From: Thermoproteota archaeon
GTDB lineage: Archaea > Korarchaeota > Korarchaeia > Korarchaeales > Korarchaeaceae
Reading direction: 5' to 3'
Assembly: GCA_037917625.1 (NCBI GenBank)
Contig: JAVCBY010000044.1
Span: forward strand, 1-42,214
Length of the DNA stretch: 42,214 nucleotides
The notes under the pieces were generated by a model, which had not been told where the DNA came from, did no database searches, and saw nothing but the letters and a program-made list of their open reading frames with translations. Numbering within the stretch: position 1 is the stretch's first letter; every line of letters starts with the position of its first letter. Below, in pieces: positions 3,004-9,372 of this stretch. The position numbers and the translations under genes are program-made.

Positions 3004-3809
3004 TTGCTCCCACCAGTCAGGTTTATCGCTCCCTCAGGAGTCACCAATATAGTATCCTCATATTGAGCTACGGGCCTCCCAGAGGCCTCTGTGAGGGGAG
3101 GATAGGGGAGGAGCGCTCCCTTCTTAGTCAAGCGGATCAAGGCATCATTCACCCTCATCCCCATCTCATTCCAGATCCACCTCTCGCAGAAAGGCAATTT
3201 ACTGTAATTTCTCTCTATAGACTTGAGGACCCTCCTCTCCACCTCGTCTCGCGTCCCCACTTTCTTCCTCAGGGAGAATATGAGGGGCTCGCCTTGAGAT
3301 ACTACGTAACCTTTAGAATCCGGCGTAGTTACAAAAGGTTCGATAGCGAAAACATCCCACTAGACTATCGTCTCGTATATTGCTTCGCTCACCTCTATCA
3401 GTTTCCTCCCAGGGGCCATCTTTTCAATAGCCTTCAGTAAAGCTTCTCTAGCTACTTCAGCCATATCCTCATATCTATCATCGAGTACGACTGTTCTAGC
3501 TGCATCCACTATGATCCCCTTATCGTGAGATCCCATATCGAGCTTCACCAAAGAGCCCGAGGGGATCGAGCTGCCATCCCCTGGGAACGGTGTGTAGTGA
3601 GCTGCAATATGATTCAACGAGATGTTAGTTGGGAAGGCTGGCTCGTATCCCATCTCCCTTATCCCACGCTCGGATTCCTCAGCTATTTCGATTAGCTTAG
3701 CTCCTTCCTTCACTCTACTGACGAAATTTTCTAAGATGAGGGAATGAGCTTCACCGAGCCTCAACATAGCATCTATGCGATCCTCATCCATATGCCTCTC
3801 AACACTCAC
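3000..3809 (-). pseudogene. map: Type II methionine aminopeptidase, disrupted by in-frame TAG at 3360-3362 and apparent internal deletion
   Basis: PAFP.N.S.N..AAHYTP, D.G.H and D-A-A in the 5' part; same frame resumes WDVFAIEPF...LPF..RW...AQYEDT after the stop; the NLxGH...H.G segment is absent. Confidence 0.8.
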
Positions 3810-3850
3810 TTCGACGTCGGATTAAAAAAAGAATCCTGATAGATCTCGTT

Positions 3851-4480
3851 ATGAGGAGGATATACTTAAGGGAGGGGGGAGAAAGTATAATAGATGAGGT
3901 AGTCGATGCGTTGAGAAGGGGGAAGCTCGTAATCTACCCAACGGATACTGTTTACGGTCTTGGGGCTGATGCTGAAAATGTAGATGCTGTCAGGAGGGTT
4001 TATGAAGTTAAGGGGAGGCCCGAGGAGAAGAGGCTCACGATAGCTGTGAGCGATATAGAGATGGCTGAGAGGTACGCTGTAGTGGATGAAATTAGCAGGA
4101 GACTTATGGAAAAATTTTTACCAGGAAAGGTGACTTTCATACTTAAAAAGACATCTAGAGTTCCAGATATCGTAAATCCTGAGGCAATAGGCATAAGGAT
4201 CTCCAACATCCCGATAATATTGAGGATCATAAGGGAGTTCGGAAGAGCTATAACAGCTACTAGTGCGAACAAATCCGGAAATCCACCTAAGTTAGATCCT
4301 GAGGAGGCTGCTATGGAGATAGAAGCTGATCTCCTCTTAGATTATGGAAAGCTACCCCCTAGTAGACCATCGACGATAGTGGATTTAACGGAAGGGGAGC
4401 CTGTATTAGTGAGGGAGGGGGATGTACCATTCAGCCTCGTGATGAGGGAATACTCGAGGATAAGATATCTCTTGGCATAG
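3851..4480 (+). CDS. tsaC: L-threonylcarbamoyladenylate synthase (YrdC/TsaC type, no SUA5 C-terminal domain)
   Basis: YPTDTVYGLG, KGR and TSANKSG motifs; 209 aa. Confidence 0.92.
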   Translation: MRRIYLREGGESIIDEVVDALRRGKLVIYPTDTVYGLGADAENVDAVRRVYEVKGRPEEKRLTIAVSDIEMAERYAVVDEISRRLMEKFLPGKVTFILKKTSRVPDIVNPEAIGIRISNIPIILRIIREFGRAITATSANKSGNPPKLDPEEAAMEIEADLLLDYGKLPPSRPSTIVDLTEGEPVLVREGDVPFSLVMREYSRIRYLLA

Positions 4481-6031: not shown

Positions 6032-6116
6032 AATCACATTTATTATTAAAATTTTTATTAGTAGAGAGGCACCTGGACTTCAAGGTTAAAATATCTGTAG
6101 CACATATATACGGGGA

Positions 6117-7010
6117 ATGTTGACGAAGGAGCTGAGCAGGGAAGTTGAGGAGATAAGAAGGAGATTTGGGATAGTCGGTAGGAGAGAGGAGTTAGCTAAA
6201 ATGTTGATAGCTGCCAGAGGGAGAAAGCACATACTTCTAGAGGGCCCAGTAGGTGTCGGAAAGACATTCTTAGCGAGGGCCCTTGCTGAGTACCTCTGCA
6301 GAGATTTCATAAGGATAGATGGTGATGAGAGGCTAGACGAGAACAAGCTTCTCGGTTATTGGGACCCACCTATCGTCCTAAAGATGGGATACGTTGAGGA
6401 AGCCTTCGTACCGGGTCCGCTCACGAGAGCAGCTCTCTCAGGATCGATCTTATTCATAAATGAGCTGAATAGACTACCTGAATCCGCTCAGAATGCATTA
6501 CTGCCAGCTATGGATGAGGGGATAATTCAGATACCTCACCTAGGTACCTTGAAGGCCAAGGAAGGCTTCCTGATAATAGCTACTCAGAACCCTGAGGAGG
6601 ATATAGGGGTCTATAGATTATCTGAAGCGTTGAGGGATAGGTTCGTCCTGATAAAGTTAGGATATCCGAGCAGGGAGGAGGAGATAGAGATAGTTAAGGC
6701 TCAAGTACCCGATGTAGAGGATAAGATAGCTGAGATAAGTGTTGATATAGTGAGGAGGACTAGGGAGCATCCTGTCATAATTAGGGGATGTTCCGTCCGC
6801 TCCTCAATAGATTTAGCGAGGATAACGAGTCTGATGGATGGAGGGGATGAGAAATGGTATACTTCAGCCTTAATGACACTACCTCAAAGGATTGAGACAG
6901 GTGATTCCAGCGTAGATAAGGAGAACTTAGTGAAGGAACTTGTCAGATCAGTTTTAGGGGGATATAAGGGGGATTTTCCCATCCAGAGGGACCTCCAAAG
7001 GTCCCGATGA
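6117..7010 (+). CDS. MoxR/CoxD-like AAA+ ATPase
   Basis: Walker A GPVGVGKT, Walker B variant LFINELNR, ATQNP sensor I, LSEALRDRF arginine finger. Confidence 0.88.
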   Translation: MLTKELSREVEEIRRRFGIVGRREELAKMLIAARGRKHILLEGPVGVGKTFLARALAEYLCRDFIRIDGDERLDENKLLGYWDPPIVLKMGYVEEAFVPGPLTRAALSGSILFINELNRLPESAQNALLPAMDEGIIQIPHLGTLKAKEGFLIIATQNPEEDIGVYRLSEALRDRFVLIKLGYPSREEEIEIVKAQVPDVEDKIAEISVDIVRRTREHPVIIRGCSVRSSIDLARITSLMDGGDEKWYTSALMTLPQRIETGDSSVDKENLVKELVRSVLGGYKGDFPIQRDLQRSR

Positions 7011-7993
7011 CATTCGAATTCGGGAAAGCTCATGTCCAGCATCAGAGGGAATTCATTAGCTTAGATTATGATAAAATGAAGGAGATAGCAAATTATTATC
7101 TGATTAATGGAGACCTAAATGGTCTTTTGGCTCTCTCAAACTACAGCCAGATATTAGTAGCTGAATTGATCTCTGAGAGTGGTTTCCCAGAGAGAGCAAT
7201 TCTCTCGATGGAGAGGGACCCGGAAGCTGCTGTTAAGTTGTATAGGCAGGTGAGATGGAAGCTCAATGAGAGATCTAGATCTCTCTTCAAGAGACTGATA
7301 GCTAAAATAGTGATAAAGATATCATCTGGAGACTCAAGAGGTTTTTCAGTGAATTCTAGGGAATATTCAGGGGCCTATTCTCCGGGGATGGAGTTCGATC
7401 TCGAGAGAACCATTGAGAGGATGATAGAGAGATGCAAGAAAGTTGATGAGATGAGGTATGAGGACATAGTAGCCTCTGATAGGAGGAAAAGGGATAAGTC
7501 CCTTATAATTATCTTGGATTCGAGTGGATCTATGACCGGAAAGAAGATACTATTAGCGATGATGATAGCAGCTATAGCATCCCACAAACTGAGAGGAGGA
7601 AAGTATGGCGTGGTGGGATTCAACAGCACAGCCTTCGTTATAAAATCTCCCATGGAAAATAAGAATTCTGTTAAAGTAATTGAAGAGATACTTGATTTAG
7701 TCCCTATCGGATATACAAATATATCGGATGGCCTCAAAAAGGGATTGGAGATATCATACAATCTCAAGAATCCTAAGTACCTCCTCATAACTGATGGGGA
7801 GTATAACGTGGGTGAGGATCCTAGGAAAGTCGCGAGACGTTTCAAGAACTTATGCGTCATCCATACGAGAGAGAGGAGAGATTCAAGAGGATCCGCCTTA
7901 TGCAAGGAGATAGCGAGAATCGGAGGTAGTAAATACTTCGTTATAGATGACATAAGGCAGATCCAACGCGTGATGAGGAGTATCTTGGGTTGA
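7007..7993 (+). CDS. von Willebrand factor A (vWA) domain protein, partner of the AAA+ ATPase
   Basis: MIDAS DSSGS...T...ITDG; ATGA overlap with the ATPase; lies in the -1 frame. Confidence 0.88.
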   Translation: MTFEFGKAHVQHQREFISLDYDKMKEIANYYLINGDLNGLLALSNYSQILVAELISESGFPERAILSMERDPEAAVKLYRQVRWKLNERSRSLFKRLIAKIVIKISSGDSRGFSVNSREYSGAYSPGMEFDLERTIERMIERCKKVDEMRYEDIVASDRRKRDKSLIIILDSSGSMTGKKILLAMMIAAIASHKLRGGKYGVVGFNSTAFVIKSPMENKNSVKVIEEILDLVPIGYTNISDGLKKGLEISYNLKNPKYLLITDGEYNVGEDPRKVARRFKNLCVIHTRERRDSRGSALCKEIARIGGSKYFVIDDIRQIQRVMRSILG

Positions 7994-8066
7994 TCGCTTA
8001 ACTCACCTAATGCAGTCGGTTTTAGATGGAGGAACGATTAAATAGATATTCAGCTAAGTGAGAGTG

Positions 8067-8151
8067 GCGGGGGTGGCCGAGAGGTCCAAGGCGCCAGCCT
8101 TAGGAGCTGGTGAGCATCAGGCTCGCGTGGGTTCAAATCCCACCCCCCGCA
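8067..8151 (+). tRNA. tRNA-Leu(UAG)
   Basis: GCGGGGG/CCCCCGC acceptor, CCAGC-CTTAGGA-GCTGG anticodon arm, long variable arm, GGTTCAAATCC T arm. Confidence 0.95.
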
Positions 8152-8169
8152 CTAATTTAAGGTCTAAAG

Positions 8170-8182
8170 TTTTTTAAAAAAA
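8170..8182. terminator. Putative bidirectional T-tract terminator
   Basis: T6 followed by A7 between convergent tRNA-Leu and glycosyltransferase. Confidence 0.5.
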
Positions 8183-8211
8183 TGAGTATGAGTTAATTAT
8201 ATCCTTCGAAG

Positions 8212-9372
8212 TCAATAGATAACGCTCTCAATCACGCTTACAGCCCTCCCCAAGAAATCCCAGTTTGAGAACCTTCTCCTGAATTCCATGGCCCTCTTCG
8301 AGAACTCATCATCCTCAAGGAGGGTCCTCAAATGATTAAAGAATTCCTTTTTAACTTTCTCCTGCTCTAAGTTGATTCCCAGTCCTAATTCTTGAACTAT
8401 CTTTGCATTCTCAATCTTCTCCGTCTGACCGGGGACTGGGATCAGAAGCAGCGGTTTTCCGCAGAGGAGGGCCTCTGAGATTATCGTATGGCCCGCTCTC
8501 GAGACTACTACTTTAGCCCTGGAGAGGAAATCCCACTTATTCGGGAGCCAGCTGTAAGCTGTGACTCTATCGGACAGTCTCTCTATCCTTAGATCCCCAG
8601 GATCCCCTAAGGAGATAACGAATTCCAGCCCTCTGAGATCATCTGGTACTTCTCTCATGAAATCCAAGAGCTCTGAGATTAAAGGCTTCCTCTCAGCCTC
8701 TGGTCCAGATATCATTATTAAAACTACATTCCCCTCCCCTTCACTGCATTTGGGCTCTATTAAGGGACCTGAGAAGACGAGCCTATCCATTAGTGCTTTA
8801 GGGAGGTCTGATGTGTGATACTTAGATATACTGAAGGGAGGGGGAAAATCTGCGACTATAGTAGCTTGAGAAACAGCCCAGAACCTAGTTATCATAGAAT
8901 TTACTAAAAATTCGACTTTTTTAGCTAAAGATTTCCCGAGGATCTCCCTTCTCCATCCACCTATGAGGGGATGAAGTAGTAGCTTAGGTTGATTAAGCAC
9001 AGAGACCGTGGGGAGACCTAAGTACTCTGATGCGATGATTGTCTGCAGCCTAGAATCTGAGATCACTACATCAGGAGATATCGCTTCAATATTCTTCTTC
9101 TCCTCTAAGATCTGAGATATGAATTCTCTGAGTATGCTCGGATCCTTAAGAGTCCCCCAGAAATCTGGGGATCCATCTTCCTTACTCTTCCATAGGATCT
9201 CATTCCCTCCTCCAAGCACCTCGAATTTGCTCGCTTTTAGGTAAGAATAAGCATCTCCTCTCGCTGAGAGATATACTGAGAATCCCTCCTCCATCAATCT
9301 ATCAGCTAAGTTCGCGCACCTAGAAGCGTGACCGTACCCTATGCCCAGGGGGGATATATAAGCTCTCAACAT
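8212..9372 (-). CDS. GT-B glycosyltransferase (GT28/MurG-like C-terminal domain)
   Basis: GIGYGHASR, PDVVISD, SRAGHTIISEA, P...Q.E...NA motifs. Confidence 0.85.
   Translation of the reverse strand: MLRAYISPLGIGYGHASRCANLADRLMEEGFSVYLSARGDAYSYLKASKFEVLGGGNEILWKSKEDGSPDFWGTLKDPSILREFISQILEEKKNIEAISPDVVISDSRLQTIIASEYLGLPTVSVLNQPKLLLHPLIGGWRREILGKSLAKKVEFLVNSMITRFWAVSQATIVADFPPPFSISKYHTSDLPKALMDRLVFSGPLIEPKCSEGEGNVVLIMISGPEAERKPLISELLDFMREVPDDLRGLEFVISLGDPGDLRIERLSDRVTAYSWLPNKWDFLSRAKVVVSRAGHTIISEALLCGKPLLLIPVPGQTEKIENAKIVQELGLGINLEQEKVKKEFFNHLRTLLEDDEFSKRAMEFRRRFSNWDFLGRAVSVIESVIY

Follow-up and report, generated by a model that had tools for sequence, protein, structure and literature searches.

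A candidate programmed −1 ribosomal frameshift linking a MoxR-class ATPase to its vWA partner in an archaeal genome and its relatives

The frameshifting chlD genes (fs-chlD) of Mg/Co chelatases are a published case in which AAA+ and AAA+-vWA products arise via frameshifting (PMC3711429, PMC9227772; review PMC5009743), and the same sources bear out the precedent invoked in a preliminary description of the present DNA, namely that an AAA+-only and an AAA+-vWA protein can both be made by means of a −1 shift. In fs-chlD the shift is rarely +1, and RefSeq annotates these loci as two adjacent genes, about 1 kb. In the NorQ-NorD and CbbQ-CbbO pairs the ATPase gene has an adjacent MIDAS vWA gene; in published descriptions the two proteins are translated separately, and a search of the literature found no frameshift in either pair. 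A study that reported a CbbQ6:CbbO1 stoichiometry proposed, as a general theme, that each hexamer carries one vWA (PMC4660213). Midasin and dynein are considered to have had MoxR as their prokaryotic precursor (PMC3495828). Midasin (Rea1) itself has six AAA modules fused in a chain of ~4900 residues, and combines this AAA ring with a single MIDAS domain and an acidic, flexible linker. For archaea, −1 shifts at a heptamer followed by a stem-loop are described for Sulfolobus fucA1 and for the tail chaperones of archaeal viruses (PMC8211752); the archaeal cases named in this 2021 review are fucA1, some viral tail chaperones and a proposed Mg-chelatase, and it asks whether further archaeal genes use −1 frameshifting.

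Here we analysed a stretch of archaeal DNA of 42,214 nucleotides (the window), which carries on its forward strand two overlapping genes that very probably constitute a two-ORF recoding unit in which a programmed −1 frameshift fuses a AAA+ ATPase to a vWA protein. Every element described below was confirmed in the window at the coordinates given. The first gene (6117–7010, zero frame; ORF list and Pfam) encodes a MoxR-class, NorQ/CbbQ-like ATPase of 297 aa, and the second (7007–7993; ORF list and Pfam) encodes a vWA/MIDAS adaptor of 328 aa counted from its ATG. The two ORFs overlap by ATGA, which places the vWA gene in the −1 frame of the ATPase gene; the ATG (7007–7009) and the ATPase stop TGA (7008–7010) together form a GAUGA element (7006–7010) whose ATGA is invariant in an alignment of 37 sequences of the region (alignment A3). 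Translation of the −1 frame showed that its last stop is the TAA at 6965–6967, that it is open from 6968 onward and that it then reads GGFSHPEGPPKVP-MTFEF. A few nucleotides further, and in the codon phase of the ATPase, lies the slippery heptamer G_GAU_UUU (6971–6977), the proposed −1 tandem slip site on the grounds of its sequence and conservation, with GAT (6972–6974) as the P-site Asp codon followed by Phe in the A site. It is separated by a 10-nt spacer (6978–6987) ending in an invariant GA from a 7-bp G+C-rich hairpin (6988–7005), the proposed frameshift stimulator, which consists of the arms GGGACCT (6988–6994) and AGGTCCC (6999–7005) around the loop ccaa and was also recovered in the centroid fold. 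The sizes and frames of the two ORFs, the phase of the heptamer, the hairpin and the length of the fusion thus agree with the preliminary description: 287 zero-frame codons (6117–6977) and 338 codons of the −1 frame (6977–7990) add up to a predicted trans-frame product of 625 aa (6117–7993), with the predicted junction ...KGDF followed by SHPEGPPKVPMTFEF.... The same junction was found without insertions or deletions in contigs of three public runs, two of which are possibly the source of the window; the public runs listed with this stretch include none of RNA.

Both proteins were assigned to families using Pfam, TIGRFAM models and matches to known structures. The ATPase matched AAA_5 (87.9 bits, cut-off 22) and AAA_3 (70.5 bits, cut-off 27) and contains the Walker A motif GPVGVGKT. 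Its Walker B position has INE, an invariant Asn replacing the Asp of the usual DE motif. The vWA partner scored above the cut-offs of VWA_CoxE (40.5 bits), VWA_2 (35.0 bits) and VWA (29.3 bits) and has a helical N-terminal part followed by the vWA fold; its MIDAS motif (DxSxS...T...D) is intact, with D184, S186, S188, T250 and D276 invariant among 12 diverse sequences (alignment A1). The designation of the ATPase as MoxR-type in the preliminary description holds at the level of the class, with AAA_5/AAA_3, Walker A, the adjacent vWA partner and the fold (the latter from a model of an ortholog) all present, and can be refined in that it comes nearest to NorQ/CbbQ in fold and to midasin in sequence. 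Among PDB sequences the ATPase matched NorQ with an E-value of 7e-13 and, as its best match, midasin with an E-value of 4.1e-45, residues 29–270 of the query being aligned to one AAA module. The AlphaFold2 model used for structural comparison was that of a 629-aa naturally fused ortholog (65% identical, not the window protein itself), whose best structural matches were NorQ (TM-score, TMt, 0.79–0.87) and CbbQ (0.80–0.81), at an identity of only 18–25%. Neither of the ChlD models was reached: TIGR02442 gave 38.2 bits for the ATPase, 35.0 for the vWA protein and 59.2 for the fused ortholog against a cut-off of 779.45, and TIGR02031 gave 33.6 bits for the window protein and 41.1 for the fused ortholog against 499.55. 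The large chelatase subunit CobN/ChlH, which is usually encoded nearby, is not near the locus; the CobN of this genome (587.9 bits) lies on another contig (C81) beside a different, ChlD-like vWA gene (137.4 bits). Nor does the 297-aa ATPase, with its single AAA module, have the six tandem modules and C-terminal MIDAS domain of midasin. On these comparisons, the window proteins are a NorQ/CbbQ-type, midasin-like MoxR ATPase and its MIDAS vWA partner, not ChlD.

Related loci were gathered with an alignment of the ATPase (alignment A2), in which the conserved domain stops at ...EIVxxxL about 10 codons before the slip site. We examined 125 loci, 120 of them distinct, and all locus counts given here come from related genomes, which are non-independent samples. 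The adjacent pairing of ATPase and vWA was kept in 114 of the 120 distinct loci, and the −1 relation between the two frames, on which the preliminary description depended, holds in 102; six loci have the vWA in the +1 frame (all six with TTT_TTT_CGN in phase), six are natural in-frame fusions and six are truncated. The −1 relation is also found where the genes do not overlap and the ATG lies 11, 23, 26 or 29 nt past the first base of the stop, and 38 different combinations of heptamer and stop offset were observed. In the 102 "−1" loci the zero-frame stop comes 0–12 codons past the A-site codon (0–2 codons in 68) and the −1 frame is open from the heptamer onward as it is in the window, with no −1-frame stop downstream of the heptamer or within the bridge between the two domains; the nearest upstream −1-frame stop is at most one codon away from the heptamer in 25 loci. 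This −1 state spans the whole family tree, for which 9 label changes suffice.

All 102 "−1" loci carry an in-phase slippery heptamer where the ATPase domain ends: 62 canonical X_XXY_YYZ sites, 37 GGATTTY sites and 3 others. An automatic scan recovered a heptamer of class ≥2 within the ORF overlap in 101 of the 102 loci, compared with 33.1 expected from gene bodies, where such in-phase heptamers occupy 2.2% of codons, and a canonical heptamer in 64 compared with 11.5 expected; re-placing the automatic picks by hand at the homologous motif in seven loci (L022, L026, L035, L042, L083, L108 and L122) changed the latter count from 64 to 62. Position 1 of the heptamer equals position 2 in 101/102 loci (27.1 expected), and 12 different codons, which stand for 11 amino acids and all end in G, occur directly before GG[AG]TTT. 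GAT or GGT is retained at the slip site in relatives of high G+C content, in which a third-position T makes up only 5–25% of synonymous codons. Because the sites were chosen by pattern, these heptamer statistics are partly circular. Where the GGATTTT of the window is changed, other slippery heptamers take its place in phase (GGGTTTT, AAATTTC/T, GGGTTTC and TTTTTTA/C, and in bacteria A-runs or CCCAAAA), and the pair of residues encoded at the slip site varies (DF, GF, NF, VF, FL) while slipperiness stays. In fs-chlD the site is A_AAA_AAR, whereas the archaeal sites are of the U type (GGAUUUU and similar). The claim that GGAUUUU works as a −1 site in a virus is supported for the umbravirus PEMV2, where GGAUUUU has experimental support and GGGUUUU reached 112% of its level (PMC4737148). 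GGAUUUU is non-canonical and would re-pair weakly in the P site, and its activity on archaeal ribosomes is a prediction from sequence.

Since the bacterial relatives have runs of 7–10 A at this site, we also considered that the polymerase adds or drops a base at the T run, so that some of the mRNAs encode the fusion directly. Slippage of the polymerase is accepted at such lengths, as for the A9 run of Thermus dnaX, and in Mg-chelatase cassettes the efficiency correlates with the length of the poly-A run (PMC3711429). In the window, however, only four T occur in a row, most archaeal relatives have 4–6, and the strict codon phase, the constraint on position 1 and the hairpin at fixed spacing are traits of ribosomal slippage, which leaves transcriptional slippage a highly improbable explanation. 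An internal TATA-like promoter formed by the T run was rejected as well; its flanks are G+C-rich in some genera, and the phase, the frame relation and the orthologs lacking a start codon would be left unexplained.

The usual spacing of a stimulatory RNA structure is 5–9 nt downstream of the slip site. The spacer in alignment A3 is constant at 10 nt, with G16, A17 and G18 invariant, and the hairpin accordingly starts 10 nt downstream of the heptamer, or 8 nt if the invariant GA/GA forms pairs. The stem is short (7 bp) and its energy unremarkable: the 66-nt stretch folds at −20.7 kcal/mol (z = −0.68), and 51 of 200 shuffled sequences fold at least as well. Because folding energy was not distinctive, covariation was used to evaluate the hairpin. 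In the window's clade 87.7% of cells are paired compared with 74.0% in shuffles, a value reached by 0 of 500 shuffles, two-sided changes number 34 compared with 11.6, and slid controls are 37–68% paired; the covariation sought after the preliminary description was thus found within this clade. Since the letters of the stem encode a conserved E-(E/G)-P...A-P in the −1 frame, constraint on the RNA and constraint on the peptide are confounded at the stem. A covariance model of the element had its sole match in the window's own genome at the locus (E-value 4.6e-9), the next values being 0.86 and 0.98. The 7-bp stem may be marginal in heat, the runs holding the stretch being labelled hot springs. 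A search of positions 6800–8300 against Rfam gave no family match except tRNA, other matches remaining below the gathering scores, and a reading of the GA-stem-GAUGA arrangement as a K-turn was set aside on inspection, there being no 3-nt bulge between stem and GAUGA.

Two details of the preliminary description did not hold up. The Shine-Dalgarno-like AGGGGGAT at 6956–6963, suggested as an upstream stimulator, is not conserved within the genus and varies freely among relatives. The CATC/GATG extension of the stem is kept in the closest relatives only and is not supported as a general feature, the nearest relatives showing only CA/UG or UCA/UGA pairs.

That the heptamer and hairpin are due to chance or are relics, and the two genes mere neighbours, would agree with a folding energy no better than that of shuffled sequences and with the frequency of class ≥2 heptamers in gene bodies. 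The persistence of heptamers across archaeal and bacterial phyla far above this background, the covariation of the hairpin and the −1 state running through the whole family tree argue against it, and we assign to such a lack of function a negligible probability.

The start codon of the vWA ORF was assessed by its distance from the heptamer. No ATG, GTG or TTG lies within 15 codons of the heptamer in 54 of the 102 "−1" loci, nor within 30 codons in 27, and in the loci lacking a start the conserved sequence of the vWA protein already begins upstream of the first possible start. Many relatives have no start codon for the vWA ORF, and annotations therefore either miscall or truncate it. The GAUGA letters of several Asgard relatives encode Asp-Asp/Glu in the vWA frame and the ATG is out of frame. 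The window's wider clade (41 loci) has kept an in-frame ATG 3–14 codons past the heptamer, a start codon for the downstream ORF that distinguishes it from fs-chlD. For this clade the caveat of the preliminary description, that the ATGA overlap would also fit ordinary translational coupling, therefore stands. By coupling alone the two proteins would always be separate and the heptamer would merely be an Asp and a Phe codon; the hairpin, which pairs up the bases immediately preceding the vWA start codon, would keep this start inaccessible until melted by a ribosome that terminates at the ATPase stop, and reinitiation would follow at ATG 7007. The overlap of stop and start as ATGA and the position of the ATG directly after the hairpin, kept in the 41 loci, fit this scheme, and whichever of the observed stop positions a ribosome terminates at, it would open the hairpin. 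Coupling nevertheless leaves unexplained why the vWA stays in the −1 frame at all four non-overlapping stop positions, why −1-frame stops between heptamer and ATG are absent at every locus, why a G is constant at position 1 of the heptamer although this is the third position of 12 different codons, why substitutions lead toward other slippery heptamers, and why 54 of 102 relatives have no nearby start codon. It is compatible with frameshifting and unable to replace it, so that coupling as the only mechanism appears improbable, and in the window's clade we read it as an added route, not as a replacement for frameshifting.

Natural fusions, whose occurrence had been proposed as a check, exist among the relatives. 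Besides the six fused loci, searching for longer proteins gave 101 matches of 521–723 aa, nearly all with both AAA_5 and vWA Pfam domains. In the AlphaFold2 model of the 629-aa fused ortholog the AAA+ module (residues 1–274) is followed by a disordered linker (278–314), a helical domain and then the vWA, and the linker is located exactly where split orthologs have the shift site. A dnaX-like site that would yield a short product from the in-frame fusions was considered and discarded, as the homologous place showed no consistent heptamer in phase.

Together, the comparative evidence supports a putative programmed −1 frameshift; that slippage takes place in vivo, and at some frequency, we infer. 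By default, most ribosomes would stop at the TGA at 7008–7010 and release the 297-aa AAA+ subunit. A fraction would pause with tRNA-Asp on GAU and tRNA-Phe on UUU (6972–6977) when encountering the G+C-rich hairpin 10 nt downstream (8 nt if the flanking GA/GA form sheared pairs), whereupon both tRNAs would slip back by one base onto GGA_UUU and reading would continue in the −1 frame via the short linker SHPEGPPKVP into the whole vWA, giving the 625-aa AAA+-linker-vWA chain. As a third route, free vWA protein would probably also be made by termination-reinitiation at ATG 7007, because this ATG follows the hairpin directly and overlaps the stop. By analogy with the CbbQ6:CbbO1 stoichiometry and with the six AAA modules and one MIDAS domain of midasin, the purpose may be to equip a hexameric ring of otherwise plain subunits with a limited number of covalently attached adaptor domains, ideally a single one. 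As the preliminary description suggested, the locus might in this way set the ratio of the two kinds of subunit.

Set beside the known systems, the proposed unit resembles fs-chlD in that one locus would yield an AAA+-only subunit and, after a −1 shift, an AAA+-linker-vWA subunit, in its natural fusions in other species and in its slippery site with a candidate downstream structure, but differs in protein family as judged by the TIGRFAM scores, in the type of its archaeal slip sites and in having CobN and a ChlD-like vWA on another contig of the genome. Compared with NorD and CbbO, the vWA partner of the window is much smaller (328 aa). The proposed unit shares with midasin the overall logic of ring, linker and single MIDAS domain, whereas at the window locus there is one AAA module per chain and a single MIDAS domain would be attached by recoding. 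Unlike the fucA1 shift, which is reported for a few strains only and restores a single enzyme (PMC8211752), the signal described here is kept across phyla and has two different predicted products. In our literature search the chlD frameshift was the only analogous one in print, and the published fs-chlD set may overlap the bacterial wing of the present family.

Known archaeal cases are few. The locus represents a candidate that is conserved in roughly a hundred genomes, many of them Asgard MAGs, and its clear, mutable elements and predicted junction peptide make it directly testable. It offers a candidate explanation for how MoxR-vWA machines come to have one adaptor per hexamer, and it connects a predicted AAA-linker-MIDAS product resembling midasin with the proteins closest in sequence to midasin's AAA modules. 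More speculatively, and in our estimation unlikely, the locus might be a "split midasin", in which a set fraction of ribosomes shifts frame, so that a ring of six identical midasin-like AAA+ modules carries a mean of about one tethered MIDAS adaptor. The device would then be ancient, with a range that takes in Thermoproteota, Asgard archaea and several bacterial phyla, and decoding of its U-rich slip site by tRNA-Phe would make the ratio of the products responsive to growth conditions. If this were true, recoding, and not gene fusion, would first have given rise to the 6:1 AAA:MIDAS architecture, which eukaryotes would later have fixed in one giant chain.

Sequence comparison identifies a real and strongly conserved recoding signal at the junction between the AAA+ ATPase gene and the vWA gene, very probably a programmed -1 ribosomal frameshift. 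The window's ATPase gene (6117-7010; 297 aa; Pfam AAA_5/AAA_3) and vWA gene (7007-7993; 328 aa; Pfam VWA_CoxE/VWA_2/VWA) overlap by ATGA, so that the vWA gene lies in the -1 frame. The last stop in that frame before the heptamer is the TAA at 6965-6967, past which it is open and reads GGFSHPEGPPKVPMTFEF..., and there follow the slippery heptamer G_GAT_TTT, which keeps the codon phase of the ATPase (6971-6977), the hairpin GGGACCT-ccaa-AGGTCCC with 7 perfect base pairs (6988-7005) and GAUGA (7006-7010; columns 42-46 of A3, the alignment of 37 heptamer-hairpin elements), all on the forward strand. A slip at the heptamer is predicted to give a product of 287 + 338 = 625 residues. The preliminary description had proposed a frameshift fusion on these grounds, and its ORFs, frame opening, heptamer, hairpin and fusion length each match the window sequence. 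As a tRNA-Leu gene (anticodon UAG, 8067-8152) lies directly 3' of the vWA gene and an A+T-rich gap of 85 nt (6032-6116) precedes the ATPase gene, the pair looks like a self-contained two-gene unit.

A chelatase-subunit identity for the pair was considered and rejected, since scores on the ChlD and cobaltochelatase models, at 33.6-59.2 bits, fall below the cut-offs (499.55 and 779.45). Another contig of the same genome (C81:5-3921) encodes a large chelatase subunit of the CobN type (587.9 bits, one TGA within the match), which is adjoined at the contig end by a ChlD-like vWA protein (137.4 bits to TIGR02442), whose AAA part would fall off the contig; the presence of these proteins elsewhere likewise argues that the ATPase-vWA pair is not a chelatase subunit. 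NCBIfam returned sub-threshold matches only, the best being MadB ATPase and GvpN. In a PDB sequence search (window 6117-7007) the best match was the midasin/Rea1 AAA module (E 4.1e-45), with NorQ at 7e-13 and CbbQ at 4e-8. A natural fusion of 629 aa, with 65% identity in the ATPase, was modeled with AF2 (mean pLDDT 86.3). The model comprises an AAA+ module, a disordered linker (278-314) that coincides with the shift-site position of the split genes, a helical domain and, last, the vWA fold, and its best structural matches were NorQ (from NorQ-NorD complexes) and CbbQ. Loki-type loci carry D/E-rich residues after the shift site, as does midasin's linker. The MIDAS residues of the vWA domain are invariant. 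The Walker B motif is usually Asp-Glu; its position here reads (I/L)NE (6450-6470; N115 and E116 of the ATPase alignment A2), the Asn being invariant in 12 diverse members.

Within the same phylum the vWA protein was present in 45 of the 61 genomes searched. We inspected 43 orthologous junctions (30 loci from the first search and 13 of the 15 fetched later, leaving out L044 and L045, the fused paralogs in genomes G040 and G041) and found the -1 relation in 41, a +1 relation in one (L021) and an in-frame fusion, with an open frame of 664 codons, in one (L029). The ATGA overlap is not needed for the -1 relation: in further species of this genus and this family the ATPase ORF terminates within the loop of the hairpin, within the spacer or immediately past the heptamer, and the distance from the first base of its stop to the ATG is 11, 23, 26 or 29 nt with the frame relation unchanged. 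Scanning A2 against one genome per species gave a wider set of 80 named loci from archaea (Thermoproteota, Nitrososphaerota, Thermoplasmata and many Asgard lineages labeled Heimdall-, Prometh-, Thor-, Njord-, Hermod-, Hod-, Sif- and Borrarchaeota) and bacteria (Bdellovibrionota, Myxococcota, Actinomycetota/Thermoleophilia, Spirochaetota and Armatimonadota), and the ATPase family is abundant in Asgard MAGs. Both domains were located by searching each of the three forward frames with profiles. All 125 loci together comprised 106 in the -1 relation, 6 in the +1 relation, 7 fused and 6 on truncated contigs in which no pair could be detected; with five duplicates removed, the 120 distinct loci divided into 102, 6, 6 and 6, respectively. 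The -1 relation predicted for relatives is thus borne out, also at loci where the genes do not overlap, and the naturally fused orthologs that had been anticipated exist both among these loci and among longer proteins, a search for which gave 101 matches of 521-723 aa, nearly all with AAA_5 and vWA Pfam domains and named in their sources AAA family ATPase, GvpN or MoxR-like ATPase/ChlD. At one locus (L075) the vWA frame is broken by a stop into two profile pieces (3306-3876 and 3879-4338), and at another (L070) the ATPase part contains an N run, so that its fused status depends on the frame after that run.

The heptamer found at the homologous site of the 102 -1 loci, always slippery and in phase as the preliminary description would have it, was a canonical X_XXY_YYZ in 62, GGATTTY in 37 and of another kind in 3, with placement by hand at 7 loci. 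Same-phylum heptamers took slippery forms only (GGATTTT, GGGTTTT, GGATTTC, GGTTTTC/T, AAATTTC/T, GGGTTTC and TTTTTTA), the zero-frame residue pair changing along with them (DF, GF, VF, NF, FL), and heptamer and stop offset occurred in 38 different combinations across the 102 loci. The context is G_GAT_TTT_CAA_TAA in the Loki type and G_GAT_TTT_TTC_TAG at most loci of the Heimdall type. Thermoleophilia-type loci have C_CCA_AAA followed about 6 nt downstream by strong G+C hairpins (the strongest, in L121, at -37 kcal/mol). The bacterial site is A_AAA_AAA/G/C (A_AAA_AAN) embedded in a tract of 7-10 A that may also permit transcriptional slippage. In the same gene bodies, across 54,458 codons, the frequency of in-phase heptamers is 0.62% for the canonical form and 1.54% for XXN_YYY_N; at these rates a heptamer of class >=2 would be expected in the ORF overlap of 33.1 of the 102 loci and was observed in 101, while for canonical heptamers, scanned before hand placement, 64 were observed against 11.5 expected. 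Heptamer position 1, the third base of the preceding codon, equals position 2 in 101 loci against 27.1 expected, and the P-site codon has the required last base in all 102 against 52.9 expected, both counts being partly circular since sites were picked by pattern. A non-circular detail is that GG[AG]TTT is preceded by any of 12 codons, which encode 11 amino acids and all have a final G that, in a tandem slip, would be part of no translated -1-frame codon. At each of the six +1 loci (L021, L049, L065, L073, L077 and L088) TTT_TTT_CGN stands in phase; it could plausibly serve as a +1 (or -2) site, which makes even these exceptions look like recoding. The same letters stand inside an in-frame fusion in L078, the sister of L049.

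The zero-frame stop follows the A-site codon by 0-12 codons in all 102 loci (0-2 codons in 68). The nearest -1-frame stop lies at most one codon upstream of the heptamer in 25 of them, and none was found downstream of it in any. Of the 102 loci, 41 have an ATG no more than 15 codons from the heptamer, almost all of them members of the window's wider clade; ATG, GTG and TTG are absent within 15 codons in 54, within 20 in 40 and within 30 in 27. Because at start-less loci the conserved vWA-protein sequence begins upstream of every possible start, the protein would there hardly be made without a frame change. Two genomes each hold a frameshift-type pair with T_TTT_TTA (L042 in G040, with an in-frame ATG directly after the heptamer; L043 in G041, without a nearby vWA start) and an in-frame fused paralog with an open frame of 632 codons (L044 and L045, respectively).

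In same-phylum relatives the heptamer, a 10-nt spacer with a terminal GA, a stem-loop rich in G+C and GAUGA form a fixed module, and a covariance model of it matched the ATPase/vWA junction as the sole site in the window's genome. The folding energy of the window's own hairpin is unremarkable (z -0.68 vs shuffles). Among the 37 distinct sequences of A3, standard pairing at the 7 stem pairs was found in 87.7% of cells vs 74.0% in shuffles (0 of 500 matched), a test that overstates the support because the aligned sequences are related; sliding the partner by 1-3 columns, a control in which relatedness is kept, gave 37-68% paired and agrees with it. Two-sided changes numbered 34 vs 11.6 expected, compensatory change was seen in 6 of the 7 pairs and the outer helix was 97.3% paired, so the covariation foreseen for the hairpin is present. 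The GA before the stem is invariant, and tandem G.A pairs would put structure 8 nt from the heptamer. The ATGA after the hairpin is also invariant and the preceding G nearly so; this ATG is the vWA start in the window's clade and is out of frame in several Asgard loci (L040, L053, L055 and L069, Loki type), where the vWA frame reads GAUGA as Asp-Asp/Glu.

On a FastTree phylogeny of 114 ATPase domains, quick and unrooted and therefore not telling gain from loss, the -1 state spans the whole family, with U-type sites occupying the archaeal part and A-type sites the bacterial-plus-Thermoplasmata part. The labels require 9 changes in all vs 36.5 for shuffled labels, with at least four changes for the fused and at least three for the +1 state.

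The sequence steps are comparative; the slip at the heptamer, its efficiency and its purpose are what we infer. The favored purpose would be to restrict how many tethered adaptors a hexamer carries, given the precedents of the CbbQ6:CbbO1 stoichiometry, whose authors propose one vWA protein per hexamer as general (PMC4660213), midasin's architecture and frameshifted chlD. Since the ATG is kept in the window's clade, three products are possible there, namely ATPase, fusion and free vWA protein. The two precedents named in the preliminary description are in print: for 'magnesium chelatase'/chlD a frameshift is known to fuse the AAA+ part with the vWA part (PMC3711429, PMC5009743, PMC9227772), with 10-63% in E. 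coli reporter assays (PMC3711429), and GGAUUUU is the slip site of PEMV2 (PMC4737148). The portions consulted of a review of archaeal recoding contain no MoxR or vWA case (PMC8211752), searches of the literature on chlD and GeneTack yielded the chelatase case alone, and full-text searches returned no description of frameshifting for a MoxR/NorQ/CbbQ-type pair, an earlier listing under the name chlD being possible. The frameshift mechanism is of a known kind; with none described in this family according to these searches, what is new is the protein family, its wide occurrence in Asgard and other archaea, and its midasin-like nature.
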